Under the pieces are notes generated by a model. That model did not search any database. It saw only the letters and a program-made list of their open reading frames with translations, and was not told where the DNA came from. From Candidatus Omnitrophota bacterium (lineage in GTDB: Bacteria > Omnitrophota > Gorgyraeia > Zapsychrales > Fredricksoniimonadaceae): a DNA stretch of 64,000 nt. This document shows positions 19,505-47,282 of this stretch, in pieces. Within the stretch, counting starts at the first letter, position 1. Every line of letters starts with the position of its first letter. The DNA lies in contig CAIVRE010000011.1 of the NCBI GenBank assembly GCA_903908245.1, positions 2,411 through 66,410 on the forward strand, written 5' to 3'. The translations under genes were made by a program, and so were the position numbers.

Positions 19505-21608
19505 AGCCGCTTCCTTTTTTCAGCGTTGTGCCGCGATCAAGAAGATCCCTATCTTTGCTTCGGTTGACATGTTCCGGCTTCAGAGCATCGCGGGCAGCGG
19601 GGATGTGGTCCGTTATAAAAAAGGGGACATGGTCTCGCAGAAGTCGAACGCGCCGGACTTCGTTTTTTTCGTCGTTTCCGGAAGGCTGATCTCCTACACG
19701 CTTGATTCTGACGGGAAGAAAGACGATGTGGAGTTCATTCACCGGGGGATGTTCTTCGGGATCATTTCCGCCCTGACCGGGGAAGTGCACTCGCAGAGCT
19801 TTGAGGCGATCAATGATTCCCTTGTTTTTCAGATCCCGGTGGCCAAATTCCGCAAACTGCTTAAGAAGTCCCCTGACCTGAGCCTGAAATTCAGCAAGGC
19901 TTTGTCCCAGCGCATCCGAAACAAAGTGACCAGGACGGATACCGTTTCCAGGAGCAAGATCATTTCTGTCTTCAGCCCTATTGCTGGTTCCGGGAGTTCA
20001 ACATATGCGCTTAGCCTGGCGCTCAGTTTCTACCAGGAGACGGGGGATCGGGTGATCTACGTCGCGATCACCTCGCGTGATCCGGCCGGCTCTCCTATCA
20101 CACCGGACATGGACGATATCCGGCCCAAATGGAAGAAAGAGCCCGAGGACCTTGTGGCGGTATCCGAAGACCTGGAGAACATATCCCGGCGCGTTGTCCG
20201 CAGCAATGTCGGGGTTGATATCATCAATGTTTCCTTTGATCCCGCGAGCCATCAGGGGCTGGTGCAGAACATCAGTGATTTTGTGGCCAATTTTCTTGAT
20301 GATTACCGTTATATCGTCGTCGATCTTCCCAGTGAGCTTGATGAAGTGGTGATGAAGACATTTTCGCAGTCCGATATTATCCATTTGGTGATGATGCGCA
20401 AGCGCGAAGCGCTGGAGTCCGCCCGGGAGACCCTGGACAAGATAGAGACGTATCTGAAGGATTCTTTCACGGAAGAGCGGGTCCGGGTCGTTATCGGCGG
20501 CGCGCATTCGCACCGTAATCTGACAGACGAGGAAGTGACGGGCCTTCTTGACTATAATGTACTGGCGTTCCTTCCGCATATCCAGCGCAAAGACCTGGCG
20601 ATGGAGATCGAGACGCCGGCCTTCCATTTCTGGGCCATTAATACTTCCAGCCAGTACTGGGGGATGATCACCAGGATATCCCGTCAGATGTCCGGTGTCT
20701 CGGTGGGGCTTGTGCTCGGGGGTGGCGCGGCATTCGGGCTGGCACACATCGGGGTGATCCGTGTCCTGGAAGAAGAAAATATTCCGATCGATGTGGTTGT
20801 CGGCAGTTCCATGGGAGCCCTGATCGGCGGATTATGGGCCGCAGGGTATACGGCGGACGAGCTTGAGGTCATGGCGTATGAATTCCGTGTGCGTTCGAAC
20901 CTTTTTAAACTGATCGATGTTGTCTTTCCTTTGTCGGGCCTTATCAGCGGCAAGGCGGTCACGTCCTGGCTGCGCAGTAAATTCCATCAAAAGACCTTCA
21001 AGGACCTGAAAATCCCTCTGAAAGTGGTGGCCTACGACCTGATCCATCGCCGGGACCTGATCATTGAGGAGGGGCCCCTGGTCGATGCGGTGCGTAAAAG
21101 CATTTCTATCCCCGGCGTTTTTCAGCCTATTGTCAATGACGACCAGCTTATTATCGACGGAGGGGTCATGAACCCGCTTCCGATCAATGTCCTGACGTCG
21201 ACGGATGTCAAGAAGATCATCGCGGTCAACGTGCTGCAATCTCCCGACGATGTTATCCGCGGTTATGAAAAGACCCGCGCCGAACTTAACAAGGCCCTTG
21301 CCGATCCTTTCCTGAAAGACCCCTGGATTTTCCTGGATATCCGTTTCCGGTTTTGGCTTAACAAGGTGTTTTTCCCGAATATTTCTGATATTATCGTCCG
21401 TACGCTTGAAGCGTCCGAATGCGTGATCGCGGAACAAAGCGCGCGCGGTGCGGATATCGTGATCCATCCGGACCTTTCCGGCCTCAACTGGTATGAACTT
21501 TACCAGGCGGATATTCTTATCAAGCGCGGGGAAGAAGCCGCCAGGCTTCAGGTCCCGAAGATCAAGTTAATGATGTCGGCCAAAAAACAAGGACCAGCGA
21601 ATGTCTAA
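19497..21608 (+). CDS. cyclic-nucleotide-binding domain + patatin-like phospholipase (NTE-like)
   Basis: Start set at ATG 19497 overlapping SDR stop (ORF-track 19317 extension overlaps SDR). N-terminal cNMP-binding fold; patatin GxGxxG (GGGAAFGLAHIG), GxSxG (GSSMGA) and DGG motifs. Confidence 0.75.
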   Translation: MLKAASFFQRCAAIKKIPIFASVDMFRLQSIAGSGDVVRYKKGDMVSQKSNAPDFVFFVVSGRLISYTLDSDGKKDDVEFIHRGMFFGIISALTGEVHSQSFEAINDSLVFQIPVAKFRKLLKKSPDLSLKFSKALSQRIRNKVTRTDTVSRSKIISVFSPIAGSGSSTYALSLALSFYQETGDRVIYVAITSRDPAGSPITPDMDDIRPKWKKEPEDLVAVSEDLENISRRVVRSNVGVDIINVSFDPASHQGLVQNISDFVANFLDDYRYIVVDLPSELDEVVMKTFSQSDIIHLVMMRKREALESARETLDKIETYLKDSFTEERVRVVIGGAHSHRNLTDEEVTGLLDYNVLAFLPHIQRKDLAMEIETPAFHFWAINTSSQYWGMITRISRQMSGVSVGLVLGGGAAFGLAHIGVIRVLEEENIPIDVVVGSSMGALIGGLWAAGYTADELEVMAYEFRVRSNLFKLIDVVFPLSGLISGKAVTSWLRSKFHQKTFKDLKIPLKVVAYDLIHRRDLIIEEGPLVDAVRKSISIPGVFQPIVNDDQLIIDGGVMNPLPINVLTSTDVKKIIAVNVLQSPDDVIRGYEKTRAELNKALADPFLKDPWIFLDIRFRFWLNKVFFPNISDIIVRTLEASECVIAEQSARGADIVIHPDLSGLNWYELYQADILIKRGEEAARLQVPKIKLMMSAKKQGPANV

Positions 21609-21969
21609 ACAACCTGTTGTCAAGCGCCCCTGGGGGACATATCACAAGATCTTCCAGGAAGATGAGGTATGGGTCAAGCGTGTCGAGGTGATCTCCGGCC
21701 AGAGGATCTCGTTGCAGAAACACGGGCACCGCTCCGAGAAATGGGTTATCGTTTCCGGGCAGGGCCTGGTAACGGTCAATGAACTCACGGTCACTGTTTC
21801 CAAGGGGTCGATCATCGATATCCCTGTGGGTGTGATCCACCGGATCGCCAACCTGGGCAAGACACCTCTTGTTTTTATTGAAGTGGCCTGCGGGCGGGAG
21901 CTTACGGAAGACGATATCACCCGGTATGAAGACGACTATAAACGGGCGGGAAAACATGCAAAAAAGTGA
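21601..21969 (+). CDS. cupin-domain protein (mannose-6-phosphate isomerase type II C-terminal-domain-like)
   Basis: 122 aa cupin_2 with WGxY...HxH...E pattern; 8-nt overlap with upstream gene. Confidence 0.65.
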   Translation: MSKQPVVKRPWGTYHKIFQEDEVWVKRVEVISGQRISLQKHGHRSEKWVIVSGQGLVTVNELTVTVSKGSIIDIPVGVIHRIANLGKTPLVFIEVACGRELTEDDITRYEDDYKRAGKHAKK

Positions 21970-22759
21970 TCGTTTGCAGTGGTATAAAAATAAGACAGTC
22001 CTTGTGACTGGCGGCACGTCCGGCATCGGGCTGGAGATGGTCCGTCAACTTGCCGGGCTTGGCACCAAAGTTGTTTTTTGCGGAAGGGACCCCCAGGCGA
22101 TAGAGTCTGTGTCCCGCGCGACCGGTGCGGATGGTCTGTGCGTTGACCTTTCCAGGCACGAGGAGCTTCCGCGTTTCCTTACGGCTTTGCGTGCCAAATA
22201 TCGTATTGATATCCTCGTTAACAATGCCGGCCTGGGGGATATTACTGATTTTTGTCAGGCGGATACGCAAACCCTGCTTTCCATGCAGTCGGTGAATATG
22301 GACGCCGTGGTCGTCCTATGTCGTGAATTGTTGCCGGAGATCTCCCGGCAGCCTGGCGGCGGTATTTTGAATGTCGGGTCAGTGGCGTCTTTCTTCCCGA
22401 CCCCGGGGTCGGCTGTTTATGGCGCGACCAAGCATTTCATCGCCGGGTTCACGGACGCCCTTCATGGGGAATTGGCCGGTAAAGGCGTTCATGTTACCGG
22501 GATCTACCCGGGCAAGACCAGTTCGCGTTTTCTGGTGCGTGCGACACGGGGAAAGAATGCCGATTGGGACAAGGCCATGGCCGCCGATGTGGTGGCCCGG
22601 GCGGCGTTGTCGGGTTTGGCGTGCAACAGGATCCGGGTCATTCCCGGGTTGTCCAATAAAGTCATTGTCCTGATCGCGAAGTTCTTGCCGACGCAGATCC
22701 TGCTTCGTGTTACAGGCGTCCGCACAAAATCGCCATCAGGCCAGGGTGGTGCGTCGTGA
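21956..22759 (+). CDS. short-chain dehydrogenase/reductase (SDR)
   Basis: Start at MQKSDRL..., TGGTSGIG motif; ORF-track 21869 extension overlaps cupin gene. Confidence 0.75.
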   Translation: MQKSDRLQWYKNKTVLVTGGTSGIGLEMVRQLAGLGTKVVFCGRDPQAIESVSRATGADGLCVDLSRHEELPRFLTALRAKYRIDILVNNAGLGDITDFCQADTQTLLSMQSVNMDAVVVLCRELLPEISRQPGGGILNVGSVASFFPTPGSAVYGATKHFIAGFTDALHGELAGKGVHVTGIYPGKTSSRFLVRATRGKNADWDKAMAADVVARAALSGLACNRIRVIPGLSNKVIVLIAKFLPTQILLRVTGVRTKSPSGQGGAS

Positions 22760-23865
22760 TGGACAAAGTTTTCCGGTGGATCACCTCGTTCGGCCGGCCG
22801 TCGTATGTTGTGTTCTTTGTTACCGCCCGCTGCAATGCGCGTTGCAAGATGTGTTTTTACTCGCAGAACATGGACGCGAATACCGCCAAAGACGAGCTGA
22901 CGGTCGACGAGTATTCACGGATCGCGCGCGGGCTTGGCCGTTTCAATGTCCTGGGCATCTCCGGCGGAGAGCCTTTTCTGCGGGACGACCTGCATAAAGT
23001 CGTGGCCGCGATCTATGACCACTCTTCACCTCTGGTCCTGGACCTTCCGACAAACGGGTATTTTACGGAAAGTGTTTTGAGGCAGGTTGAACTGATCGCG
23101 AAGTACTGCACCAGAATGACCGTGGATGTGCAGCTTTCCATTGACGGCCCAGAAGCGGTTCATGACGGTATTCGTCAGGTCCAGGGCGGGTTCCGCCGGA
23201 TGTTCGAAACATATCACGGCCTCCTGGAATTGCGAAAGAGGTTTTCCAATTTACGTTTGAAAGCCTGTGTGGTCTATTCCGCCTATAATCAGGACAGCAT
23301 GCCGGAGCTGTTCGACCTGATCGAACGGGACATGTCTGGGATCGACCGCCTTGTCTTTTCCGTCGCGCATGGCACACCGGCCAACCAGAAGGCGTTTGAT
23401 TTTGACTGGGACAAGTATTTCGCTTTTTGCGACCGGCTGCGCGGTTCCCCTTTAATGCAGGGAGGACGGGACCTTCATTCGGTTTTGACCCAGGCGCTCA
23501 GGGTCGTCAAGAACGCTTTTTTGAAGGATATTTTACGGACGAAGGATATGTATCGTTATTGCGGGGCCGGTACAAGTGTGGTGGCGGTGAGCGAAACGGG
23601 CGATGTTTTCCCCTGTGAGCCGTTATGGACCCCGGTTGCCAACTTGCGAAAGTATGGGTATGATCTTTGGGCGGTCCTGCGGTCGCAGGAGATGAAGGAT
23701 TTTCAAAAGGATATCCGCCGCAAGCGCTGTCATTGCCATTGGGGCCTTCCGATGACGAATGCCATCCTTTTCAGCCCGCGGTTTTATCCGCGGGTCGCCT
23801 GGGAAATGGGGCGTGTGGTGGTCCGCAACGCGTGCTGCGCGGGGAAGGGGAGCGGTGGGGTTTAA
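22759..23865 (+). CDS. radical SAM protein with C-terminal SPASM/twitch-like Cys cluster
   Basis: CNARCKMC (CxxxCxxC) near N-terminus, GGEPFL, C-terminal CGAG...C...C cluster; start ATG overlaps SDR stop (TGATG). Confidence 0.75.
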   Translation: MDKVFRWITSFGRPSYVVFFVTARCNARCKMCFYSQNMDANTAKDELTVDEYSRIARGLGRFNVLGISGGEPFLRDDLHKVVAAIYDHSSPLVLDLPTNGYFTESVLRQVELIAKYCTRMTVDVQLSIDGPEAVHDGIRQVQGGFRRMFETYHGLLELRKRFSNLRLKACVVYSAYNQDSMPELFDLIERDMSGIDRLVFSVAHGTPANQKAFDFDWDKYFAFCDRLRGSPLMQGGRDLHSVLTQALRVVKNAFLKDILRTKDMYRYCGAGTSVVAVSETGDVFPCEPLWTPVANLRKYGYDLWAVLRSQEMKDFQKDIRRKRCHCHWGLPMTNAILFSPRFYPRVAWEMGRVVVRNACCAGKGSGGV

Positions 23866-24730
23866 GCTGGACCTTCATGTCCATACGGAGTCTTTCGGGC
23901 GTGTTTATATGGACGAAAAGAGCCTGGCGGCCGCGCTTAAGGCGCGCGGGCTTGACGGGATCGCGGCAACGAATTTTTCCAATATTTCCCATGCCCTGTG
24001 GTTGAAAAAGCAGCTGCCTCAATATCTGATCATTGTTGGACAGGAGGTCTGGTCGTCCAAAGGGCATATCGGGGCGCTGGGGATCACGCGGAAGATCCCC
24101 AATTTTCGTTCGCCGCAGGAGACGATCGAGGAGATCCATCGGCAAGGCGGCCTGGCGGTGGCACATCATCCTTTTCTTGTGATGGGGCTCGGGCGCCTGG
24201 CATTTGATCTGCCGGTCGATCTTATCGAGGGTTATAACGGGATGATCGGGGCGCTTTGGATCCATAATTTTCTTGCGCAGCGCCGCGCGCGCGCGGCAGG
24301 GCGCGTGTGCGTGTCTTCTACGGACACGACCGCGGTTGAATTTATCGGGCAAAGCCGTGTTGAGGTGATGACGGACGACCGGATGGATGTCCTTGCGGCA
24401 TTGCGGGCCGGGCGCCTTCGGATGATCCGTCGGCCCATGCCGGTCCCGGTGGGATTTATCGCCAGGAATTTTCTTGGTTTCAGGAGGCTGGCGCCGTGCC
24501 GTTTACACGCTGCGCCGTGTTTTTTGTGCGGCAATTCAATGACGGTAAGGTTATTCAACCGGAAGGTTGTTTGTGAGGACTGCCGTTGTGAGGAAGTTTC
24601 GCGCGTAGCCTGCGCGCAGGGCCATCATTTCTGCATTCCTTGTGTTATGCGCCGTATCGGCAAGGCGGATGATGCGGTTGATATTTCCAGGATCACGGTT
24701 TATCCGCACGGATACCCGGCGGAAGAATGA
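23855..24730 (+). CDS. PHP-domain metal-dependent phosphoesterase with C-terminal tandem zinc-ribbon
   Basis: LDLHVHT PHP motif; probable GTG start at 23855 (ORF-track ATG 23759 overlaps upstream gene by >100 nt); C-terminal CxxC/CxC clusters. Confidence 0.6.
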   Translation: MGFKLDLHVHTESFGRVYMDEKSLAAALKARGLDGIAATNFSNISHALWLKKQLPQYLIIVGQEVWSSKGHIGALGITRKIPNFRSPQETIEEIHRQGGLAVAHHPFLVMGLGRLAFDLPVDLIEGYNGMIGALWIHNFLAQRRARAAGRVCVSSTDTTAVEFIGQSRVEVMTDDRMDVLAALRAGRLRMIRRPMPVPVGFIARNFLGFRRLAPCRLHAAPCFLCGNSMTVRLFNRKVVCEDCRCEEVSRVACAQGHHFCIPCVMRRIGKADDAVDISRITVYPHGYPAEE

Positions 24731-25770
24731 ACGGAGATAAAATGAAAACATTGCAGAAATTCTTAGGGACTGCGCTTTTATACGCAAAAGTAGGCTTGCC
24801 GCGGATGACACCACGGAAGGCCTGGCATATGGTGTCCTATTGGGTCAAGACAACCTGCCTGGGGCAGAAGATCCCCTGGCTTGTCGAGCTTTCCGTGACA
24901 TACCGATGTCAATGCCGTTGCAAGCACTGTTCGGTCTCAAATTATTTTGAACAGGCGGGGAAAAAGCCTGAGATGACCGGTGATGAGATCAAAAGCATCC
25001 TTCGCCAGTCGGCGTCAATGGGCATTCCGAAGGTTGATTTCTTCGGCGGGGAGCCTTTACTGCGTAAAGATATCATCGAACTTGTGCGTTACGCGGAAGA
25101 GTTGGGGATCTATACATCCGTGACGACCAATGCGTTGCTTCTGGACCGGCCGATGCTAGCGGCCCTTTCGGCGGCCGGGATCAGCTGTATCAATATCAGT
25201 ATCGACAGCACTTCCTCTGCCGAGCATGATCAGTTAAGGGGCGTTGAAGGTATATATACGAAAGCGGTCGATGCGTTCGGTTTTTGTAATGAGGCGCGTA
25301 TCCCGTGCATCTTTTCCACTTATGTCACCCGCAAGAGGATCAACGGGCTTCTTCCCGGCGAGAAGGATGGCAGTTCCTTTACGGAGCTGATCCTTCTGGC
25401 GCGCAAGGTCAAGGCGACCGCGGTGCGCGTTCTGTTCCCGATCATTTCCGGCGAGTGGGTGAAGCAGAAAGAGGTTGAGCTCAACGAGCAGGAAAAAAGT
25501 GCGGTCATTGAAGCGATTGATCCGTCTTTCGTTTTTGTTGAGGGGGCTTATTCGGTCGTTAAAGGCCGTAAAGTCTGCCAGGCGTTAAGCGGGAAGATGA
25601 TCAATATTTCTCCGTACGGGGATATCCAGATCTGCGTGGCTTTCCCGAATTCTTTCGGGAATGTTGTCCGGGAGGGGTTGCGGCCTGCCCTGGAAAAGAT
25701 GTGGGGGCATTCGATCTATCAGAAGAACAAGGATGGCAGTTGCTGTAGTACGGATGACCTTAAGGTGTAA
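24727..25770 (+). CDS. radical SAM protein (MoaA/PqqE-like core) with SPASM/twitch-like C-terminus
   Basis: CQCRCKHC motif after LSVTYRC, GGEPLL; 4-nt overlap with upstream gene. Confidence 0.75.
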   Translation: MNGDKMKTLQKFLGTALLYAKVGLPRMTPRKAWHMVSYWVKTTCLGQKIPWLVELSVTYRCQCRCKHCSVSNYFEQAGKKPEMTGDEIKSILRQSASMGIPKVDFFGGEPLLRKDIIELVRYAEELGIYTSVTTNALLLDRPMLAALSAAGISCINISIDSTSSAEHDQLRGVEGIYTKAVDAFGFCNEARIPCIFSTYVTRKRINGLLPGEKDGSSFTELILLARKVKATAVRVLFPIISGEWVKQKEVELNEQEKSAVIEAIDPSFVFVEGAYSVVKGRKVCQALSGKMINISPYGDIQICVAFPNSFGNVVREGLRPALEKMWGHSIYQKNKDGSCCSTDDLKV

Positions 25771-25773
25771 TTT

Positions 25774-28123: not shown

Positions 28124-28136
28124 CCCAAAGACGGTA

Positions 28137-29075: not shown

Positions 29076-29092
29076 TCGAATACAGGAGAATT

Positions 29093-29878: not shown

Positions 29879-29888
29879 AAAGGGATCC

Positions 29889-30584: not shown

Positions 30585-30585
30585 A

Positions 30586-31554: not shown

Positions 31555-31555
31555 T

Positions 31556-33112
31556 ATGCCGTTCAGCCATTTATCAACGGATGCGGATGTGATCCTGGTT
31601 TATCCAAGGACCGGCGTTGACCTTGGCGCGACCATTGCTCCGCCGCATGGGTTGCTATCCTTGGCGGCGCCTTTACTTCACAAGGGGTACAAGGTCAGGA
31701 TCATTGACCAGCGGGTCGATCCGCTGTGGCGTGCCCATTTGACAGACGCCTTGCAGAAACGCCCGGTGTGTGTGGGGATATCCACGATGACGGGCACGCA
31801 GATCGCTTTTGCCCTTGAAGCGGCGAAACTTGTCCGGGAGACTGTGGGCGGGAAAGTCCCGCTGGTGTGGGGCGGGGCCCATCCGTCGAGCCTTCCGGAA
31901 CAGACCGTTGAAAGTGAATATGTGGATATTGTCTGTTCCGGTGAAGGGGATATCACTTTTGTGGAATTGGTGGACGCGCTGGCAGGGCATAAGCCGTTGA
32001 ACGGGGTTTCGGGCATTGTATTCAAGGATGGCGGTGCGGTGGTCACGACCCCGGCGCGCCCGCTGCTGGATGTCGAGTTGCTTTTCCCGACACCCTGGGA
32101 ACTGATCGACGTCGAGAAATATATTCACCGGGATTTTTATTTAAAGAACACTTACCGCAGCATGGACATCGGGCAGACGTCCCGTGGCTGTCCCTTCCTG
32201 TGCGGGTTCTGTTCCAGCGCGAGCCTGCGCCAGCGGCGCTGGCGGGCCATGTCGATCGAAAAGTCGCTCGAGGTCATCCTGGAGCCTGTCAAAAGGTTCA
32301 AGCTCGACAGCATCTGGATACGGGATGATGAATTTTATATTTCGCCTGAACGGGTGCACGGGATCTGCGAAGGCATTATCAACAGCGGCATCAAATTGCG
32401 CTGGTATTCTTCGGGGACGCGCGTGGATGTTTTTAACCGTTCCAGTTCCGGGCTTCTGGAGATCATCAAGCGCAGCGGTGCGGATACCCTCAAACTCGGC
32501 GCCGAGTCCGGGTCGGACCGTATCCTGAAGTTGATGAACAAGGGTATTTGCCGGGCGGATACGCTTAAGGCCAACCTCAAAGCGCGTGATCACGGGATCA
32601 TTCCGGTTTACGCCCTCATCATCGGGTTCCCGACGGAGACATTCGAGGACATCCACCAGACCATTGGCCTTTTTGTTCAGCTCAAGAGGGAGAATCCCCG
32701 TGCGCAGTTCGAGCTGATCGGGGCTTATACCGCTTTGCCGAAAACGCCGCTCTATGACCTGGCCATTGAGCATGGCCTTAAACCGCCGCAACGCCTGGAA
32801 GACTGGGTTGACTGGCTTTCGGATGATTATGACCTGACCGGCCAGAAGCTTCCGTGGTTCACTGCCAGGCAGCGGGAATATATCGGGAATATTACTTACA
32901 TGAGTTTATTGGCGAATGCTTCGGGCAATGCCGTTAACAGTATCGGGGATCATTTTTTACGGAATCTTCTCAAGTTCTTTATTACACCGGTCAGTCATTT
33001 TGAGCGGTTCAAGCTGATACGCCGCTGGTATCAATGGGCGCCGGAGATGCAGGTCATCCGGCGTGTACGCCAGGCGGTCTTCTATAAGAAAGAATCTTCG
33101 GGTCCCGCGTGA
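31556..33112 (+). CDS. B12-binding (class B) radical SAM protein
   Basis: Start at MPFSHL 1 nt after epimerase stop; cobalamin-binding domain; CPFLCGFC motif. Confidence 0.8.
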   Translation: MPFSHLSTDADVILVYPRTGVDLGATIAPPHGLLSLAAPLLHKGYKVRIIDQRVDPLWRAHLTDALQKRPVCVGISTMTGTQIAFALEAAKLVRETVGGKVPLVWGGAHPSSLPEQTVESEYVDIVCSGEGDITFVELVDALAGHKPLNGVSGIVFKDGGAVVTTPARPLLDVELLFPTPWELIDVEKYIHRDFYLKNTYRSMDIGQTSRGCPFLCGFCSSASLRQRRWRAMSIEKSLEVILEPVKRFKLDSIWIRDDEFYISPERVHGICEGIINSGIKLRWYSSGTRVDVFNRSSSGLLEIIKRSGADTLKLGAESGSDRILKLMNKGICRADTLKANLKARDHGIIPVYALIIGFPTETFEDIHQTIGLFVQLKRENPRAQFELIGAYTALPKTPLYDLAIEHGLKPPQRLEDWVDWLSDDYDLTGQKLPWFTARQREYIGNITYMSLLANASGNAVNSIGDHFLRNLLKFFITPVSHFERFKLIRRWYQWAPEMQVIRRVRQAVFYKKESSGPA

Positions 33113-34581
33113 AGATCCTTCTGATCTATCCACAGTATTCGCACAGCAGTGAATTCGATTCCCGGGCGCCGTCGATGGCGCTTTTTTATCTGGCGGCGTC
33201 CCTGGAGAAACAGGGGCATACGGTCCGTGTTTTTGACGCATCGCTCGGGCCGATTACGCGGACGGGCAATGTGTTCCGTTACGGCCTGTCGCATGAAGAA
33301 GTCGCGGATGTTTTAAAAGCGGAAATTTTTGACCTGGCGGGTATCAGTTGTTCTTTTACAGCCCGTTGGCCTTTTGTGCGCAAGGTTGCGGAACAGATCA
33401 AGGAGATATATCCCGGTAAGCCGGTTTTGATCGGGGGGTTATACCCAACCTATGCCTGGGAAGATTGCCTTCGTTCCTGCCCGTCGGTCGATGTTGTCCT
33501 TTTGGGAGAAGGAGAACAAAGTTTCGGCCAGTTGGCTTCGGGGATGCAGAAGGGGCTTGGCCTTGCTGATGCCTGCAGAGGAATTGACGGTATTTCCTGG
33601 CGAAAGGCGGATATATTTCAGGTTAACCCAAAAACGAACTATATTGATGCTCTTGATGATCTGCCGTTCCCCTCGTGGCATCTGGCGGACCTGAAAACAT
33701 ATTTTCGTCTGCAGAAAAGCATTTTTGAGCTGCCGGCGCCGTGCCTGCCCATCCTTTCATCGAGAAGCTGTCCGTTCCGGTGTTCTTTCTGTAACATGTA
33801 TATTACCCATGGCCGGCGCTGGCGTGCCCGTTCGGCTGTTAATGTCCTTGATGAACTGCAGTATCTGGTGAAGACCTTTGGCGTCCGGCGGTTTTACTTT
33901 GTGGATGACAATTTCAGTATTGACCTTGAACGGGCGAAAACGATCTGCCGCGGGATCATAGATCGGAAACTCGGGATCAAGTATAATTTTCATAACGGTT
34001 TGAGCATCAAGACCATTGATCGCGAGTTGGTGGAGTTGATGAAAAAGAGCGGCTGTACGAGTGTTTGCCTGGCGATCGAATCCGGCAGCGAGCGGGTGCG
34101 CAACGCGATCTACCGCAAAGGCCTTCCGACACAAAAGATCAAGGATGTGGTCGGCTGGTTCCTTAAGGCGGGGATCCCGACCATCGGGTATTTCATGGTC
34201 GGGGCACCGGGAGAGACGAAGGACGATTTTTTGATGAGCCGGGACCTGGTGGCAACGCTTCCGCTGTCGCTGATAACAGTGGGGATCTATACGCCGTATC
34301 CGCAGACCGAATTGTATGATGAGTGCAAGAAGCGCGGCTGGCTCAAAGAGCCCGGGGCCAATGAAGAGGGGCGGGTGGAAATGTTCTCGACGATGCTGCA
34401 AACGCCGGATTTTACCGTTGATGAGGTGGGGGCCTGGCAAAAAGAGCTGTATTTAACATTCATTCGTCACCATTGGCCGACGTTGATCAGGGAGCTGGTG
34501 CGCCCTTGGGGCGTGGTTAACATGGATATGATCGGGAAGTTCCTGGGGATGATCCGGTTCCGGTCTTTTTTACGCAAATAA
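33109..34581 (+). CDS. B12-binding (class B) radical SAM protein
   Basis: GTG start overlapping previous stop; CPFRCSFC motif; B12-binding N-terminus. Confidence 0.8.
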   Translation: MKILLIYPQYSHSSEFDSRAPSMALFYLAASLEKQGHTVRVFDASLGPITRTGNVFRYGLSHEEVADVLKAEIFDLAGISCSFTARWPFVRKVAEQIKEIYPGKPVLIGGLYPTYAWEDCLRSCPSVDVVLLGEGEQSFGQLASGMQKGLGLADACRGIDGISWRKADIFQVNPKTNYIDALDDLPFPSWHLADLKTYFRLQKSIFELPAPCLPILSSRSCPFRCSFCNMYITHGRRWRARSAVNVLDELQYLVKTFGVRRFYFVDDNFSIDLERAKTICRGIIDRKLGIKYNFHNGLSIKTIDRELVELMKKSGCTSVCLAIESGSERVRNAIYRKGLPTQKIKDVVGWFLKAGIPTIGYFMVGAPGETKDDFLMSRDLVATLPLSLITVGIYTPYPQTELYDECKKRGWLKEPGANEEGRVEMFSTMLQTPDFTVDEVGAWQKELYLTFIRHHWPTLIRELVRPWGVVNMDMIGKFLGMIRFRSFLRK

Positions 34582-34593
34582 AAGCAGGCGCGC

Positions 34594-35634
34594 ATGTTTA
34601 AATATCTTCGCTATTTTTGTTCGATCGTGGCTGGCCATGTTCTGCGCCGGGATATCCCGATCCTTGTTACTTTGTGTGTGACCCATCGTTGCAATATGCG
34701 GTGTATTTATTGTTACGGGCATTTTTACGACCGCAAGGAACCGGATATGTCGACGGAGGACATCCTTCGTTTGATCGATGAAATGGCAGCCGCGGGGACA
34801 CGTTATATTTCGCTCAACGGCGGTGAGGCTCTTTTGAGGGATGATATCGGCGTGATCGTGGACAGGATCCGGTCCAAAGGCATCCTTTGCCATTTGAGTA
34901 CGAACGGGTTATTGATCAGGAACAGGATCGATGTCTTAAGGAAGATCGATTCGCTGGCGGTCAGTATCGACGGGGTAGGCCGGGAGAACGATCTCAACCG
35001 CGGGCAGGGGACATATGCTAGGATCCTCGACGGGCTTTCTTTTCTGCGCGAACAGGGCATTCACTTTCATACGCATACGGTCATTACACGGCATAATGCG
35101 GGAGCGCTGGAGGCGATCCTGGGGCTGGCTGAAAAGTTCGGGTCCCGGGCGCAATTTAGCCTGTGCAGGGTGGCCGATTCGCCTTCCAAGGACATTGGGC
35201 TGGGGGATGAGCAGTTAAAGTGCGTTGTCCACAATATCCTTGAGTTGAAAAGACTGGGCCGCCCGGTATTCTTTTCCGGGCAGGCGTATGAAACGTACCT
35301 TTCCTGGCCGTTCTCTTATGATGTGATCAAAGTCGACGAAAAAAGCACGCCCTCGTTCCCTTCTGCTCCGCCGTGCTATGTCAAGCGGTTCTCCTGCCAT
35401 ATTGAACCTGACGGGGCCGTGTATCCCTGTATTGTATTGTCCGGTAAAGGCCCGGCGTTGAATGCCAGGAAGTCAGGCTTTGCGGAAGTCTGGCGGCAGG
35501 TCACAAAGAGCCCCTGCCGGGCGTGTTACAACATTTGTTGTAACGACCTCAATCATATCTTCAGCCTTAATTTCGATTCGATCAGGAATGCCTGTGGGGT
35601 TGTTTTGGGGCGTTTTCTTCCGGTGAAGAAATAA
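34594..35634 (+). CDS. radical SAM protein with SPASM/twitch-like C-terminus
   Basis: CNMRCIYC after LCVTHRC, GGEALL, C-terminal Cys cluster (CYVKRFSCH...YPC). Confidence 0.75.
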   Translation: MFKYLRYFCSIVAGHVLRRDIPILVTLCVTHRCNMRCIYCYGHFYDRKEPDMSTEDILRLIDEMAAAGTRYISLNGGEALLRDDIGVIVDRIRSKGILCHLSTNGLLIRNRIDVLRKIDSLAVSIDGVGRENDLNRGQGTYARILDGLSFLREQGIHFHTHTVITRHNAGALEAILGLAEKFGSRAQFSLCRVADSPSKDIGLGDEQLKCVVHNILELKRLGRPVFFSGQAYETYLSWPFSYDVIKVDEKSTPSFPSAPPCYVKRFSCHIEPDGAVYPCIVLSGKGPALNARKSGFAEVWRQVTKSPCRACYNICCNDLNHIFSLNFDSIRNACGVVLGRFLPVKK

Positions 35635-35643
35635 CGGCGGGAT

Positions 35644-37923
35644 CTAAAGGGGATCCGGACGGCGCCCGAAGCCTTGTTTGAAGAGATAAAGGACCGCTCC
35701 CGCGATCATCGATATTAAAAGTAAAAGCGCCGTGATGCTCACCCATTGGACCGTTGTCCCGAAAACAAATCGTACCGTCGAGTGCCCGTAAGGGATCATG
35801 ACCGCTTTATATCCGATATTCGTTTGAATGACCGGCTGGCGCTTGCCGTTGACAAAAGCGCTCCAGTTCGGGTCGTAGGCGTCGGCGTAGTACAGGAAAC
35901 CGTTCTGCCCGGGTTTTTCTTCCAGGGCCACATCCACCACCAGTTCGTTGAAAGAGAAAGTTTTGACCTTGATGGGGGCAGAGACAGCTCTGTCATTGGA
36001 GTTGGCGAACGCCCGTGAAGATGTTATACGCAGGACGTCTTTGGGAAGGGGCTGCCCGCCTTTGTTAAGGCTCGCGGGTGTTGTGAAGATCATATTCCCG
36101 GCGAATTCCGGCAGGCAGATGATCCTGAGCAGGTCGGCATTATCCGGTGCGATATTGATGTGTGAAAAAAAGGCGATCTTGTTGCTGTTGAATCCCGAGA
36201 CAGCCTCCAGGATCTTGAACGCGTTTGGTTTGGCCACGATCGCGGCGTTATATTCCATGACCGACCTCTCGGCATAGTCGGTGCGAAAAATGGAAACGAT
36301 ATTGTCTGTGAACAGGAAAGTGTCGGTTGTGTCGTAAAGGGACCCTACCCGCGGCTCGGCGCTCAGGACAGGCAGAAGGATGGCGGAACGCCCGTTTAAG
36401 GTGTTCTTGGTGATGTCCAGGGCGCGTTGTTCGGGGAACGCGTAGGCATACGGGTCAAAGAGTTCAAGGAGGTTCTTTTCAGCGACGGGCATCCGGGTAA
36501 CGATATAGGAATAGCGGTAGAACCAGAGGTCGCAGGAGAGAAGGAGCATGATAATAAAAAAGAACATTTTTGCCTGCCGGTGCTGAAGGATGAAATACAA
36601 AGAGATCAGCGAAAGCAGGAGCAGCGCGAGGAGCCTGGCCGGAAGAAGATCAATAAAGATCCTGTCAAAAGAGGTCATGTGCCAGAACGTTTCCTGGAGC
36701 TGCAGGGCATCCCTGGAAAGCCCCTGGACCGGGATGAAAAGAAAAGCCATGGGCCAGAGTTTTTTTAATTTTGGGAACATGTCTTTTTCGAAGAATTTCG
36801 CGACGCCGAAGCCGGCGTAAAAGACCATGAACAGCTTGGCGACCGGGGCGGTCAGGCCGATGTGCCGGAAACAATTCCCCATGGGGAAAGCGTAATAGAA
36901 CGTCCGGCTTACGACGGAATCCATGCTGAACAGGAAGAGGATGCCGGCCGTACCAAGCAGGACAAGTGCGCGAGGTTCGCGCACATAGAAGATCGCGATG
37001 AGCGCAAAGAACCAGGTCAGGAATCCGCAGTAAAGATTGTTGTCGATATTCTGGTTGCCGGGGTAGCGGGTGAAAGCCGCGTCGAGTTTTCCGAAGCCGG
37101 TATGCCCGCCGTAGGTCAGGAAATTGTCCAGGGGGACGATCCCTGAATCCGAACGGGCGGCCCCCAGGTAATAGATATTGTTACGCCCGTAGATAAAATA
37201 ATAGAGCCCTATTGCGGCAACAAGAAGGAAGGCCAACAGGACGATAATATGCCTGAGGCGGATATTTTTCAGGACCCCCTCCAGGTCATGGTGTTCCATG
37301 ATGATCAGCGGTATGGCGTAAACGAGGACCACAAAGAACGTGAAGATCGAGTCTTGCGGCGGGTTATTGACAACGGATAAAAGTCCCAGTGCGAATGCAC
37401 ACAGCAGAAAGTTCGGCTGGCGGGAATCAAGCCAGCGGTGGATGGCGTATAAGAGGAGAGGCAGGAAATAAAAGTTCTGAAAATTCCACCATATTTGCGG
37501 ATACCAGATGGTGCTGCCGATCAGCGCGAAGGTGGTGAACCAGACGGGCTTGCTTGAGCGGTAATAGACTGTCCCCAGGAGAATGGTCCCGCCGAGGAAT
37601 AACATCTCGTAGCAGAATATCTGGGCGTAGACCATGTAAACGGCGTTCATTTTGATGCCGATGAACCCGAATAAATAATAGAGAGGGGAAAGAAGGTGTA
37701 AAAGGGCGGTGAAGAAATAATTCCCCGGCAGGCCGTGCGAAAGGAACGGGAACCAGAGCGGCAGGGTTTTATGCTGGACCAGTTCATTGTAATAGATGTA
37801 TTGGAGTTGAAGATACTGGAATGTGTCGTGGCTTATTGGGACGCGGTTCTGGATAATAAGACAGAAATAGGTAAGCCCCAGGAAGATACTGCCGGCAAGA
37901 AGGATCCAGTGCGTCTTACGCAT
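35644..37923 (-). CDS. large polytopic membrane protein, YfhO/GT-C-like putative glycosyltransferase
   Basis: ~760 aa, >12 predicted TM helices by hydrophobicity, large C-terminal soluble domain; only 9-nt convergent gap to upstream rSAM gene. Confidence 0.5.
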   Translation of the reverse strand: MRKTHWILLAGSIFLGLTYFCLIIQNRVPISHDTFQYLQLQYIYYNELVQHKTLPLWFPFLSHGLPGNYFFTALLHLLSPLYYLFGFIGIKMNAVYMVYAQIFCYEMLFLGGTILLGTVYYRSSKPVWFTTFALIGSTIWYPQIWWNFQNFYFLPLLLYAIHRWLDSRQPNFLLCAFALGLLSVVNNPPQDSIFTFFVVLVYAIPLIIMEHHDLEGVLKNIRLRHIIVLLAFLLVAAIGLYYFIYGRNNIYYLGAARSDSGIVPLDNFLTYGGHTGFGKLDAAFTRYPGNQNIDNNLYCGFLTWFFALIAIFYVREPRALVLLGTAGILFLFSMDSVVSRTFYYAFPMGNCFRHIGLTAPVAKLFMVFYAGFGVAKFFEKDMFPKLKKLWPMAFLFIPVQGLSRDALQLQETFWHMTSFDRIFIDLLPARLLALLLLSLISLYFILQHRQAKMFFFIIMLLLSCDLWFYRYSYIVTRMPVAEKNLLELFDPYAYAFPEQRALDITKNTLNGRSAILLPVLSAEPRVGSLYDTTDTFLFTDNIVSIFRTDYAERSVMEYNAAIVAKPNAFKILEAVSGFNSNKIAFFSHINIAPDNADLLRIICLPEFAGNMIFTTPASLNKGGQPLPKDVLRITSSRAFANSNDRAVSAPIKVKTFSFNELVVDVALEEKPGQNGFLYYADAYDPNWSAFVNGKRQPVIQTNIGYKAVMIPYGHSTVRFVFGTTVQWVSITALLLLISMIAGAVLYLFKQGFGRRPDPL

Positions 37924-39379
37924 GGGCGGGATCTTCAATGATCCGGCGGCGCAAAGGGGTTTTGATCATATTTAAAATGTGTTCGCGGGTCTGGAGGCCG
38001 AACTTGCGTTCGATCATATCCAGATATTCCGGCCGGCTGTGGTAGCGTATAAAAGAATCATCGCGGAACTTCAGGACTTGAGCTGGAGAAAGTTCCCGGC
38101 TGCCCATGGGGATACATTCGTAGCCGTAAAGGGAGTATTCTTTCCAGGTCTTTGGGATCTTGAGCTGGTTGAAAAGGACAGTGCCGGGGTAGGCGAAGAC
38201 CGGGTATATATTGGCCCATTCGAAATTGTAACGGACCAGGAAGTCGTAGGTTTGCTGCATGGTGTTGGCCGTTTCTTCCCAAAGCCCGCAAACGACATCG
38301 GCACAAATGGAAAGGCCTTCTTCCTGGGTATCCCGAATAACGCGGTCCACATCGGTATCATGGATCCCTTTGCGGGCGTCTTTTAACAGGGCTGCTGCCG
38401 AGGATTCGAAACCATAGGAGATCCAGTTCAGCCCGACTTTCTTGAGGCGTTTGAGCAGGCGGCGGTTGATGGTGTCAACGCGTGAATAGGCCCACATATT
38501 GAGATCGTAACCTTTGGGCTCCAGGAGGTCGCAGAATTCATCCATGCGTTTGTCATTCACTACGAAAAGTTCGTCGAGGATCTTGATGTGGCGGACGCCG
38601 TATTTTTCCCTCAGCAGGCTTATCTCGTCGACAACATTGGCCATGCTGCGGAAGCGCTGGGTGCGTTTTCCAAAAAGATTATTGATGGAACAGAAATTGC
38701 ACGAGAACGGACAGCCGAAGCTGGTCCAGACAATGGCGTAAGGGGTGCGGTGGTCCAGGTCGCCGAACGTGTGCCAGTTGTGCGCGCGGTAATTCGCGGG
38801 CTTCATAAGCTCCCAGTCGATCGGGGGGAGCGTGTTCAGGTCATTCAAGAGGACGGCATCCGGTGTCTGATGATACCCGGCTTGCGCGTCAAGATAGGAA
38901 ATCCCGGGGATATTGTCGACCGGAAGTCTTTCTTTAACAGAGCGGAATAAAGCCGGAATGGTTTCCCAGCCTTCATTGCGGACGACAAAGTCGGCGCCTG
39001 TTTCCCGCAGGGTCCTCTCCGGCAGTACTGTCGGATGCGGGCCCCAGACAAATGTTTTCAGTCCGGTGTTGCGGGCGTTGAACTTTTCATAGAATGCGTT
39101 GACCCCGGCCATCGCCATGGTGGAAGACGCCGGGTTGGCGCCCGTGCAGATAACGCCGGTGAGCGCCGGTTTCTTTGTTTCGATGATGGCGATCAACTCG
39201 TCGATAAGGATATTGTCGACGTCAGCTTCAATGATCTCAACGTGAAGGCCTTTGGCTTTAAGGGAACTGTTCAAAAGCCCTTGCTGGATGTTGGGAGGGA
39301 CTGAAGAATATACGTCGGAAGTGGCGGCGTAAAGGTCTTTTTTGAAATTGATCGTTGTCAGCAGAATGAGGTCGTTCAT
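37916..39379 (-). CDS. B12-binding (class B) radical SAM protein
   Basis: CPFSCNFC motif; N-terminal B12-binding domain; 8-nt overlap with downstream membrane protein gene. Confidence 0.8.
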   Translation of the reverse strand: MNDLILLTTINFKKDLYAATSDVYSSVPPNIQQGLLNSSLKAKGLHVEIIEADVDNILIDELIAIIETKKPALTGVICTGANPASSTMAMAGVNAFYEKFNARNTGLKTFVWGPHPTVLPERTLRETGADFVVRNEGWETIPALFRSVKERLPVDNIPGISYLDAQAGYHQTPDAVLLNDLNTLPPIDWELMKPANYRAHNWHTFGDLDHRTPYAIVWTSFGCPFSCNFCSINNLFGKRTQRFRSMANVVDEISLLREKYGVRHIKILDELFVVNDKRMDEFCDLLEPKGYDLNMWAYSRVDTINRRLLKRLKKVGLNWISYGFESSAAALLKDARKGIHDTDVDRVIRDTQEEGLSICADVVCGLWEETANTMQQTYDFLVRYNFEWANIYPVFAYPGTVLFNQLKIPKTWKEYSLYGYECIPMGSRELSPAQVLKFRDDSFIRYHSRPEYLDMIERKFGLQTREHILNMIKTPLRRRIIEDPAHA

Positions 39380-39445
39380 AAATATTGCGGTTATATTAAC
39401 ATGAGTAAAATTTTCCCGGAAGCACTATTTCCAGATTTATACCTT

Positions 39446-39466
39446 CCTTCATCCCGGGGATGAAGG
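39446..39466 (+). promoter_or_regulatory. perfect 10-bp inverted repeat (CCTTCATCCC-G-GGGATGAAGG) overlapping the Shine-Dalgarno of a small ORF
   Basis: Read directly; right arm contains GAAGG of the AGGAGG SD upstream of ATG 39474; lies in divergent intergenic region. Confidence 0.5.
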
Positions 39467-39473
39467 AGGGGGA

Positions 39474-39566
39474 ATGCCTCTTGTTTGGAAAAATAGTCTT
39501 GTTTGTTGCTGTATAGTTTTGTATGCTCTTTTTTCAGAGGATTTAACGGAGATCAGGGATCATTAG
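39474..39566 (+). CDS. candidate 30-aa Cys-rich small ORF (MPLVWKNSLVCCCIVLYALFSEDLTEIRDH)
   Basis: Not in 60-aa ORF track. Strong SD GGAGG 4-6 nt upstream, stop TAG 39564-66, 13 nt before downstream membrane GT gene. Confidence 0.3.
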   Translation: MPLVWKNSLVCCCIVLYALFSEDLTEIRDH

Positions 39567-39579
39567 GTAAAGGCGTGCC

Positions 39580-47281: not shown

Positions 47282-47282
47282 T

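Follow-up and report, generated by a model that had tools for sequence, protein, structure and literature searches.

A Conserved Radical SAM-dense Gene Cluster of Omnitrophota That May Make and Export an Unusual Cell-envelope Sugar

Gene Organization of the Cluster

A 64-kb stretch of DNA from a Candidatus Omnitrophota bacterium (GenBank assembly GCA_903908245.1, contig CAIVRE010000011.1, positions 2,411 to 66,410 of the forward strand; termed here the window) contains, between 21.6 and 41.3 kb, a cluster of genes encoding radical S-adenosylmethionine (SAM) enzymes, sugar-metabolism enzymes, and glycosyltransferases. The listing of open reading frames (ORFs) and domain searches revealed 14 plus-strand genes packed in positions 21601-35634 in the order g02, g03, g04, g05, g06, g07, g08/g09, g10, g11, g12, g13, g14, and g15, with a gap or overlap of no more than about 20 nucleotides (nt) between neighbors. 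This run is convergent with a minus-strand pair, g17 (37916-39379) and g16 (35644-37923), whose genes overlap by 8 nt, and g18 (39580-41334, plus strand) is divergent from g17. The gene calls on identical metagenome contigs match these coordinates. An earlier sequence-only reading of this DNA had described gaps or overlaps of 1-13 nt and a run, ending at 39379, that closes with two membrane enzymes of the GT-C type; the tight spacing was borne out, although it extends to about 20 nt, and both membrane enzymes were found (a GT-C fold in g16 and a PMT_2 domain in g18), although g18 lies just past that end.

When all ORFs of at least 100 amino acids (aa) were checked for a CX3CX2C motif together with radical SAM homology, exactly eight radical SAM ORFs were found in the window. 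Seven of them are inside 21.6-39.4 kb, as the sequence-only reading had counted, and the eighth, g19, is located at 9574-11040 on the minus strand. If radical SAM genes occur in the background at between 1 per 100 kb and 1 per 20 kb, rates that are our own assumption, the Poisson probability of seven such genes in 17.8 kb is 1e-9 to 4e-5, and a density of this kind is very unlikely to arise by chance. The stop codons of g15 (35634) and g16 (35644) converge with 9 nt between them, so that neither strand has space for a terminator of its own. A promoter and terminator consensus scan of 21.5-41.5 kb gave intragenic matches only and was uninformative on operon boundaries, and an Rfam scan of the whole window detected no RNA family.

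Radical SAM Enzymes of the Cluster

Four of the seven radical SAM proteins, g07 (25774-27297, plus strand, 507 aa), g13 (31556-33112, plus strand, 518 aa), g14 (33109-34581, plus strand, 490 aa), and g17 (minus strand, 487 aa), belong to class B, with a B12-binding domain (PF02310, 45-72 bits; cut-off, 32.1) followed by the CX3CX2C core of a Radical_SAM domain (PF04055); the E-values of the two domains in g07 are 3.6e-20 and 5.5e-16, respectively. The CX3CX2C motifs of all four are invariant in their orthologs. These assignments agree with those of the sequence-only reading, which had also placed g19 in class B, and g19 is indeed a full-length HpnJ-like B12-radical SAM protein encoded beside ilvBN. 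From their domains, g07, g13, g14, and g17 are predicted to bind cobalamin and may catalyze methyl transfer or rearrangement. The four proteins and g19 are 24-29% identical to each other, which rules out a recent duplication and indicates that the paralogs are old and functionally distinct rather than recent copies. The g19 protein scores 312 bits with the HpnJ model (cut-off, 578) and is far nearer HpnJ than any paralog of the cluster; no hopanoid genes were found in the window.

No radical SAM protein of the cluster reached a curated NCBIfam cut-off, the best score within 21.6-39.4 kb being 183 versus 575 bits, and the top score of g07 being 156 versus 575 bits; relative to their cut-offs, the remaining scores of the four B12-radical SAM proteins were lower still. 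The matches below the cut-offs were to HpnJ, HpnR, BchE, PhpK/Sden_1168, ApyD, the "ladder" lipid radical SAM family, AprD4, PqqE, NirJ/AhbD, MftC, and MoaA, and among the named B12-radical SAM subfamilies none of the cut-offs for HpnJ, HpnR, BchE, PhpK/Sden_1168, TIGR04072, ApyD, AprD4, and BzaD was attained by g07, g13, g14, or g17. These hidden Markov model (HMM) searches are in line with the sequence-only reading, which could name no pathway for the genes. The source databases mislabel the cluster proteins as BchE, YgiQ, or "hypothetical." The g14 protein belongs to a rare orthologous group (about 58 database clusters at least 49% identical, followed by a sharp fall to 36%), and the profile of this group matches AprD4 (PDB 6FD2) with an E-value of 1e-25 over the radical SAM domain only. 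With 490 homologs at E ≤ 1e-30, the family of g17 is large, and g17 is the widespread core radical SAM of the system.

The remaining three radical SAM proteins, encoded on the plus strand, are of the SPASM/twitch type, as had been read from the sequence. A Radical_SAM domain was detected in all of them, the SPASM matches were marginal, and the orthologs of all three keep conserved C-terminal Cys sets. The twitch/SPASM-type protein g04 (22756-23865, 369 aa), which is part of the minimal conserved set, matches Radical_SAM with an E-value of 8e-10 and SPASM with 20.1 bits (under the 21.5-bit cut-off), reaches no NCBIfam cut-off, and shows C26/C30/C33 together with C225, C269, C287, C325, and C327 invariant in eight orthologs. 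In the twitch-like protein g06 (24727-25770, 347 aa; Radical_SAM E-value, 3e-21), SPASM gave no match, but C61/C65/C68 and C284, C303, and C340 are conserved (three to four C-terminal Cys), and a PDB sequence search gave PqqE, BlsE, and MoaA as the best solved relatives, all weak. The SPASM protein g15 (34594-35634, 346 aa) matches Radical_SAM with an E-value of 2.4e-26 and SPASM with 23.3 bits (cut-off, 21.5), and C33/C37/C40 together with C261, C268, C279, C308, C311, and C315 are invariant in 10 orthologs. Thus, the three proteins combine a CX3CX2C core with a C-terminal Cys-rich domain, whereas the cut-offs of the named maturase families were not reached, and the PDB matches of the SPASM proteins were generic (25-53 bits; PqqE, BlsE, MoaA, SkfB, and Tes).

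The coexistence of SPASM and B12-radical SAM enzymes, a classic tailoring pair for peptides that are made ribosomally and post-translationally modified (RiPPs), raised the question of whether the cluster modifies a ribosomal peptide that is later glycosylated. Matches to ApyD, PqqE, and the mycofactocin and sactipeptide maturases, all below threshold, point in this direction, as does a pair of small ORFs (89 and 92 aa) located upstream of the B12-radical SAM gene in a distant related locus (L092, see below). However, the curated maturase cut-offs were not met, the operon is gap-free with no conserved short ORF, and there is no room for a precursor gene, because the gaps are at most about 20 nt and the sole spacer is the 200 nt at 39380-39579; moreover, no RiPP recognition element, protease, or ABC exporter was found, and the conserved partners are sugar enzymes. 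We consider RiPP maturation extremely improbable.

A second explanation is the tailoring of membrane lipids (tetraether or membrane-spanning, hopanoid, or ladderane), in which the radical SAM enzymes would cross-link, cyclize, or methylate the chains, and the sugar genes would add the head group. The B12-radical SAM proteins do match HpnJ, HpnR, and the "ladder" lipid family TIGR04072 below threshold, the SPASM proteins weakly match GDGT-MAS/Tes (PDB 7TOL), and Mss/Hbs homologs have been reported in Omnitrophota (10.1101/2023.10.20.563219). Nevertheless, the scores are a fraction of the cut-offs (e.g. 140-154 versus 578 bits for HpnJ), the Tes matches are no better than those to PqqE, MoaA, and SkfB, and the window and at least 12 related loci contain no squalene-hopene cyclase, fatty-acid, ether-lipid, or isoprenoid genes; the relatives carry sugar-activation genes instead. 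No family match to Tes/Grs/Mss, hopanoid, or ladderane enzymes accompanied by nearby lipid genes was found. The sequence-only reading had already seen no support among the neighboring genes for its Tes/Grs and hopanoid alternatives, and lipid tailoring appears to us very unlikely.

The AprD4 and BlsE matches suggest yet another product, i.e. a diffusible aminoglycoside-, cyclitol-, or nucleoside-like secondary metabolite whose secreted sugar scaffold is tailored by the radical SAM enzymes and short-chain dehydrogenases/reductases (SDRs). AprD4, an aminoglycoside diol-dehydratase, is the best solved relative of the g14 profile, BlsE is among the matches of the SPASM proteins, the radical SAM density is typical of antibiotic clusters, and radical SAM-SDR pairs resemble AprD4/AprD3. 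Nonetheless, the AprD4 match is restricted to the radical SAM domain and is far under the family cut-off, and genes for resistance, export, regulation, or scaffold synthesis (DOIS/EEVS type) were not found, nor, in the window, was an aminotransferase gene. In addition, housekeeping genes surround the cluster, ordinary polysaccharide genes flank its relatives, and GT-C membrane transferases and a Dpm1-like glycosyltransferase of family 2 (GT2) are conserved parts, and we therefore regard a diffusible metabolite as unlikely.

Sugar-metabolism Genes of the Cluster

The sugar-metabolism genes are all on the plus strand, and most of them had been recognized from the sequence. The first, g02 (21601-21969), encodes a stand-alone cupin of 122 aa of the mannose-6-phosphate isomerase (PMI) type (PF01050 MannoseP_isomer, 107 bits; cut-off, 23.6) that aligns with the C-terminal PMI part of GMP/PMI TIGR01479 and is a candidate ketose-phosphate/aldose-phosphate isomerase. 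From three SDRs that had been proposed, the classical SDR g03 (21869-22759; adh_short, E-value 1.5e-42), whose true start is probably the ATG at 21926 or 21956, and the FabG-like SDR g10 (29093-29878, 261 aa; adh_short_C2, E-value 4.7e-47) lie within the cluster, whereas the third (18647-19504) is upstream of it. The g03 gene is always directly upstream of g04, and its orthologs (45-61% identity) adjoin g04 orthologs in the related loci L009, L010, L013, L019, and L089 (L-numbers designate related loci in metagenomic genomes). The g10 protein is the best conserved of the cluster, with orthologs 64-87% identical. A further extended SDR, g12 (30586-31554), is a GDP-fucose-synthase-like epimerase/reductase (Epimerase, E-value 3.4e-50; PDB 8DU0, E-value 1.6e-39), which scores 161 bits with the GDP-L-fucose synthase model versus a cut-off of 500 bits; the domain searches thus confirmed the sugar epimerase predicted here, as they did the GT2 described below.

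The PHP-fold metal hydrolase g05 (23855-24730, 291 aa, with a C-terminal 8-Cys/2-His domain) had been read as a PHP phosphoesterase. The HMM support for this assignment is weak (PHP_C, E-value 8e-4; CehA/McbA, 55.9 bits, under the 80-bit cut-off), and no PDB sequence match was found, but DLHxH, E64, H71, H95, H105, and D157, i.e. the PHP metal ligands, as well as C215...C263 are invariant in five orthologs. On this basis, g05 is a candidate sugar-phosphate phosphatase. The 8-Cys/2-His module itself (residues ~215-263) contains three CxxC pairs and is invariant in five of five aligned orthologs. Its fusion to a PHP enzyme is unusual, and the module resembles either a double zinc ribbon or an Fe-S site.

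The adjacent genes g08 (27287-28123) and g09 (28137-29075) encode the N-terminal, thiamine diphosphate (ThDP)-binding chain and the C-terminal, pyrimidine-binding chain, respectively, of a split transketolase, in agreement with the sequence-only reading. The former matches Transketolase_N (E-value 4e-40) and PDB 6YAK (E-value 1.5e-70), which is the N-terminal component of a split transketolase, and the latter matches PDB 6YAJ (E-value 1.3e-54), Transket_pyr, and Transketolase_C; the matches to this characterized split enzyme (6YAK/6YAJ) are full length. In an alignment with the Carboxydothermus split transketolase and the human transketolase, the His upstream of the DGPTH motif, at about residue 100 of g09, is replaced by Gly, whereas two Arg and the DGPTH motif itself appear to be kept. 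We take this His (H461 in Escherichia coli, H416 in the human enzyme) to be a ligand of the substrate phosphate, and the two Arg likewise to be phosphate ligands; the replacement could hint at an altered acceptor preference.

Glycosyltransferases and Membrane Proteins

The g11 gene (29889-30584, plus strand) encodes a short GT2 protein without any predicted transmembrane (TM) segment. Its scores with AglJ (96 bits) and with the dolichyl-phosphate hexose transferase model (89 bits, over the full length) are both below cut-off, as is that with PpgS, also among the best matches, and its nearest solved relatives are the Pyrococcus dolichyl-phosphate mannose synthase and ArnC, with PDB matches that span residues 9-125 only. 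The g11 homologs (49-84% identity) adjoin every g17 homolog examined. By family similarity, g11 is a candidate polyprenyl-phosphate hexose (or heptose) transferase.

The g16 gene (minus strand) encodes a polytopic membrane glycosyltransferase of 759 aa that, according to its predicted structure, is a GT-C protein by fold; ArnT, PglB, PMT, Aft, and ALG enzymes have this polytopic membrane fold in common. An AlphaFold2 model built from a 9-sequence alignment was of moderate quality (predicted local distance difference test (pLDDT), 66; predicted template modeling score, 0.73), and Foldseek returned ArnT first and then AftA and DPY19, with weak E-values. Residue D33, just after the first TM segment, is invariant in the 9-sequence alignment and stands at the position where, as we understand it, GT-C enzymes bear the catalytic acidic residue. 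The YfhO family (PF09586) gathering score was not reached by g16 (20.7 versus 28.5 bits, over the C-terminal 85 residues only), and a g16 homolog at L010:3201-5432 scores 31.6 bits with YfhO; on these scores, g16 would be at best a distant YfhO relative. The second GT-C protein, g18 (584 aa), combines a PMT_2-type domain (27.6 bits; cut-off, 26.1) and seven predicted TM segments with C-terminal TPR repeats that match many TPR models, and PMT_2 proteins are also present in L013 and at the end of the operon in L093. These results are in agreement with the sequence-only proposal of a polyprenyl-phosphate-linked sugar transferred by GT-C enzymes, the GT2 being nearest the dolichyl-phosphate (Dol-P)/undecaprenyl-phosphate (Und-P) hexose transferases and g16 having the GT-C fold.

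Outside the cluster, 6 kb away, two small EamA-type membrane proteins encoded on the minus strand (45353-45781 and 45723-46148) resemble ArnE/ArnF, the flippase subunits for Und-P-4-amino-4-deoxy-L-arabinose, with 40-48 bits versus cut-offs of 92-99 bits. The pair stands at the end of another minus-strand operon (46145-50317, encoding a FemAB-like protein, a class III aminotransferase, a phosphatase, and an alpha/beta hydrolase), and it could serve as the flippase that the cluster lacks or else belong to a lipid-modification system of its own.

Conservation of the Cluster in Related Genomes

The neighborhood comparison showed that the gene set keeps its co-localization in relatives, being syntenic in more than 12 metagenomic genomes, mostly of Omnitrophota; the loss of co-localization that would have spoken against the sequence-only reading was thus not observed. 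With one genome per species, g14 orthologs were found in about a dozen metagenome-assembled genomes (MAGs). Most of these belong to Omnitrophota, with one bin each from "Firestonebacteria," "Brocadiaceae," and the "Patescibacteria group," and the best match is 72% identical to the window. The "Brocadiaceae" MAG had suggested a ladderane product; this reading was rejected because it is the only such genome among 185,579 species representatives, so that the cluster does not track anammox bacteria. When all window proteins were compared by tblastn with the loci carrying g14 orthologs, a shared block at 45-87% identity was observed in L005/L009, L008, L010-L015, and L019, containing g03, g04, g05, g14, g15, g06, g07, both transketolase chains, g10, g11, g12, and g13. 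The g07 orthologs in the syntenic loci are 57-77% identical.

These comparisons had at first left g16, g17, and g18 outside the conserved set, but this view was rejected after lookups from g16 and g17 homologs, which place g16 and g17 within the operon in relatives. The order g13-g17-g16 is found within the operon in L087, L088, L093, and L094, with g13 orthologs (52-83% identity) directly upstream of g17, and g17 orthologs (59-62% identity) immediately upstream of g16 homologs. L087, L088, and L094 share the arrangement ...g12-g13-g17-g16-GT2..., beyond which lie ordinary polysaccharide genes (GT1, GT-D, DegT, hexapeptide transferase, and methyltransferases). The g17-g16 genes form a conserved, translationally coupled pair of a B12-radical SAM and a GT-C protein, which in the window is simply inverted relative to the operons of the relatives. 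In Ca. Saelkia tenebricola (L093), a single colinear operon runs from g04 through g16 and continues with an HddA-like kinase, an HddC-like nucleotidyltransferase, an RfbH-like enzyme, and a PMT_2 protein, directly followed by purine genes. A minimal version (L089) consists of a GHMP kinase, an NTP transferase, an RfbH-like enzyme, g03, g04, transketolase, g10, g11, g12, g17, and g16. The sequence-only reading is thus refined in three respects, the location of the g17-g16 pair within the operon in relatives, the addition of a nucleotide-sugar stage, and the probable role of the transketolase in precursor supply (see below).

Recurrent neighbors in the related loci are polytopic membrane proteins of ~700 and ~950 aa (some of them in-operon in L008 and L013), small TPR proteins, and a DUF362-ferredoxin protein. 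The in-operon family of 950-970 aa (L008, 7113-9962; L013, 12536-15445) has 12-13 predicted TM segments, its two members are 37% identical to each other, it has no Pfam match, and a relation to g16 was not detectable. A protein with DUF362 and 4Fe-4S ferredoxin domains, absent from the window, is encoded within the cluster in L012 (5506-6594) and L014 (=L007; 6690-7832) and is plausibly a dedicated electron donor for the radical SAM enzymes. In L006/L017, a g14 ortholog (10001-11503, 50% identical) stands apart from the other cluster genes; its neighbors are two YfhO-like/TPR gene pairs, two membrane paralogs of ~700 aa, GT2 genes, a ThDP enzyme, and a methyltransferase. This setting suggests that g14 is able to function with GT-C systems independently of the rest.

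A Smaller Module and Heptose-like Genes in Distant Relatives

A smaller module, consisting of g17, g11, g12, and a polytopic membrane protein, recurs more widely, and the cluster of the window is an expanded form of it. Three g17 homologs at 46-50% identity, those of L090 (a deltaproteobacterial MAG), L091, and L092, all keep the same neighbors, i.e. a g11-like GT2 (49-61% identical), a g12-like reductase (34-38%), a second, short epimerase-family protein, and a protein of 655-998 aa with 8-11 predicted TM segments. In L092, two small ORFs (3040-3618; 89 and 92 aa) with no counterpart in the window are located directly upstream of the g17-like B12-radical SAM gene and a gene for a membrane protein with an F5/8 type C domain.

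GmhA, GmhB, HddA, and HddC are the four enzymes of the GDP-D-glycero-D-manno-heptose route. Both L090 and L092 contain genes whose best NCBIfam matches are to these four enzymes, all below the cut-offs; in L092, the scores for GmhA, HddA, GmhB, and HddC are 234 (cut-off, 276), 161 (600), 165 (178), and 227 (300) bits, respectively, and the heptose-like genes adjoin a split transketolase. In L093, the HddA-like and HddC-like proteins score 168 (600) and 162 (300) bits, respectively. The presence of HddA-like kinase, HddC-like nucleotidyltransferase, and GmhA/GmhB-like genes in relatives suggests that a nucleotide-sugar stage precedes the lipid-linked stage, possibly with heptose, and the position of the split transketolase beside the heptose-like genes of L092 suggests that its role is the supply of sedoheptulose 7-phosphate. 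The transketolase thus probably provides a precursor rather than tailoring the sugar.

The same neighborhoods bear on a different order of events, in which the radical SAM enzymes would act on the polyprenyl-phosphate-linked sugar instead of on a nucleotide sugar, with transketolase and SDRs making a non-heptose precursor (such as a polyol phosphate or a sugar with a branched or extended chain). DprE1/E2 and ArnD provide parallels, since they act on lipid-linked sugars. The coupling of g17 to the GT-C gene g16 through the 8-nt overlap, the constant proximity of g17 to the GT2 gene g11, the absence of a kinase and a nucleotidyltransferase from the window, and the sub-threshold scores of the heptose genes of relatives all speak for this order, and the g17-g11-g16 association fits tailoring on a lipid-linked sugar equally well. 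On the other hand, the operons of the close relatives L089 and L093 include a kinase and a nucleotidyltransferase, g12 shows its greatest similarity to nucleotide-sugar reductases, and gene adjacency does not fix the order of reactions. We assign this alternative a rather low probability, although a higher one than to a diffusible metabolite.

Flanking Genes and Base Composition

Upstream, the cluster is flanked by housekeeping genes (ilvBN, aconitase, leuCD, ilvD, and aroC), and downstream by genes for an iron-containing alcohol dehydrogenase and rsmH. The composition profile showed no compositional island, the GC content of the cluster (0.53-0.575) being close to that of the upstream housekeeping genes, and the GC content is lower only beyond 44 kb of the window. 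An ORF of 763 aa (19317-21608, plus strand), which has no counterpart in any syntenic locus, combines cNMP-binding, AAA_31, and patatin phospholipase domains. It overlaps the start of g02 by 8 nt and, hence, may be cotranscribed with it; because this ORF overlaps the preceding SDR gene, its start is probably downstream of 19504. Farther upstream (2255-6766, plus strand), a protein of 1503 aa has a starch-synthase catalytic domain (residues 514-722) as its sole recognizable domain, and it recalls the sugar-metabolism "Module 2" long proteins described in Omnitrophota (10.64898/2026.06.07.730766).

Proposed Pathway

Starting from the families and folds of the parts, their conserved co-localization, and the g17-g16 coupling, we lean toward a cell-envelope glycan system in which a single unusual sugar is synthesized, tailored, and exported. 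The identity of this sugar as a heptose is a tentative suggestion. As a first step, the split transketolase g08/g09 would supply a ketose phosphate, with sedoheptulose 7-phosphate as the leading candidate. Activation would then involve g02, which may isomerize the ketose phosphate to an aldose phosphate in a C7 analogue of the fructose 6-phosphate/mannose 6-phosphate isomerization, as well as g05, which may remove the distal phosphate, standing in for the HAD phosphatase GmhB, and a GHMP kinase and a nucleotidyltransferase, both of them encoded in the operons of L089 and L093 and presumably at another site of this genome. The nucleotide sugar would be tailored by the reductase g12, the SDRs g03 and g10, and the radical SAM enzymes. 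By analogy with AprD4/AprD3, the g03-g04 pair could carry out a radical dehydration followed by reduction, i.e. a deoxygenation, whereas g07, g13, g14, and g17 may catalyze C-methylation or skeletal rearrangement, and g06 and g15 may catalyze oxidation, epimerization, or C-C bond formation. The sugar may be heavily C-modified, as the sequence-only reading proposed. The GT2 protein g11 would move the sugar to polyprenyl phosphate, a flippase not encoded in the cluster would turn it across the membrane, and g16 and g18, to judge from their GT-C assignments, would attach it to an acceptor in the periplasm or at the surface, for which the TPR domain of g18 hints at a protein.

Several observations weigh against this scheme. 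GmhA, HddA, GmhB, and HddC are absent from the 64-kb window, and neither the cluster nor the rest of the window contains a kinase, a nucleotidyltransferase, or a SIS or HAD heptose enzyme; GmhA/GmhB-like genes were seen only in the more distant relatives, with scores below cut-offs, and no heptose-activation genes were found in the flanks of L010 and L013. A g02 ortholog was not found by tblastn in the related loci. The g16 model (pLDDT of 66 only) gave no Foldseek match at E ≤ 0.001, and homology of the other large membrane proteins of the related loci to g16 was not detectable. No flippase (GtrA, ArnE/F, or GtcA) is encoded within 21.6-41.3 kb. Since no protein reached a curated equivalog cut-off, every substrate assignment is made by analogy, and the radical SAM enzymes may act either on a nucleotide sugar or on a lipid-linked sugar. 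With regard to the missing heptose enzymes, g02 and g05 may substitute for two of them and keep a pathway-like function.

If the proposed glycan system is taken to its full consequence, the sugar would be new to cell envelopes, in that up to seven radical SAM enzymes would subject a heptose-derived or other higher-carbon unit to several C-methylations, to deoxygenation, and perhaps to ring rearrangement. The widespread module of g17, g11, g12, and a GT-C protein would then provide the first example of a B12-radical SAM step wired directly into polyprenyl-phosphate/GT-C glycosylation, and the acceptor could be the surface proteins of Omnitrophota, at which the PMT-like g18 hints with its TPR repeats. 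We put this extended version forward as a possible but doubtful outcome.

Comparison with Known Systems

The sugar-tailoring enzymes of antibiotic pathways (AprD4/AprD3, BtrN, BlsE, GenK, Fom3, and OxsB) include radical SAM and B12-radical SAM proteins that act on sugars or small polar substrates, and the cluster shares with them the radical SAM-SDR pairing, as in g03-g04, AprD4 being the best solved relative of the g14 family and BlsE among the best for g06 and g15. However, the similarity is confined to the core radical SAM domain and far below the cut-offs, and the context here is probably envelope glycan assembly rather than an antibiotic cluster. Hopanoid tailoring by HpnJ/HpnI/HpnK/HpnA also brings together a B12-radical SAM enzyme (HpnJ), a GT2 (HpnI), and an epimerase-like SDR (HpnA) on a lipid-bound sugar, and HpnJ is the best or near-best match for g14, g17, and especially g19. 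Nevertheless, the HpnJ cut-off is 578 bits, whereas g17 and g14 score 140-154 bits and g19 scores 312 bits, and squalene-hopene cyclase, HpnH, HpnG, and HpnK are absent from the window and the related loci.

The GDP-D-glycero-alpha-D-manno-heptose pathway resembles the system through the HddA-, HddC-, GmhA-, and GmhB-like genes of relatives, and in addition the transketolase would supply sedoheptulose 7-phosphate and the PMI-type cupin could perform the C7 analogue of the PMI reaction. In the tailoring of Campylobacter capsule heptoses, GmhA, HddA, GmhB, and HddC are followed by a dehydratase, a cupin epimerase, and a C4 reductase, and the C4 reductases are GDP-fucose-synthase-like, as g12 is. 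In contrast with this pathway, in which no radical SAM enzyme takes part, the window lacks the SIS isomerase, GHMP kinase, HAD phosphatase, and nucleotidyltransferase, two of which would be replaced by the PHP hydrolase and the PMI cupin, and the scores of the relatives are below the equivalog cut-offs.

Radical SAM chemistry is well known in antibiotics, cofactors, lipids, and RiPPs, but no radical SAM case in envelope glycan assembly was found in the literature. Nor did we find a description of such a cluster, in a literature coverage that was incomplete and leaves room for earlier studies in subscription journals; in the complete-genome preprint on Omnitrophota, radical SAM domains come up only inside giant proteins. 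No characterized pathway matches the cluster. It is a conserved and tractable orphan cluster whose sugar chemistry is probably new, and the coupling of a B12-radical SAM protein to a GT-C transferase, a pairing found again in several phyla, represents a new setting for radical SAM chemistry. The minimal 9-gene and expanded ~17-gene versions constitute a defined experimental target that could reveal new sugar structures such as C-methylated or rearranged heptoses, and the cluster offers an initial way into the surface chemistry of the phylum Omnitrophota, for which nearly all knowledge comes from metagenomes.

The cluster can further be related to the three-component periplasmic glycosylation systems (GtrA/GtrB/GtrC, ArnC/ArnE-F/ArnT, CsbB/GtcA/YfhO, and PpgS/Rv3779), since it pairs a small GT2 similar to Dol-P/Und-P sugar transferases with GT-C-fold transferases. 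A weak YfhO signature in g16 and its homologs recalls CsbB/GtcA/YfhO, and, as in the Arn pathway, the sugar would be tailored by SDR-type enzymes before transfer. The cluster differs from the Gtr and Arn types in that it contains no flippase, in that g11 lacks the C-terminal TM helices of GtrB and ArnC, and in its seven radical SAM enzymes (at least two in the minimal form), one of them a B12-radical SAM protein translationally coupled to a GT-C protein. To our knowledge, no three-component glycosylation system of the Gtr/Arn kind contains radical SAM enzymes. Taken together, the logic of the cluster matches that of a periplasmic glycosylation of the Gtr/Arn/YfhO type that is fed by a nucleotide-sugar pathway.

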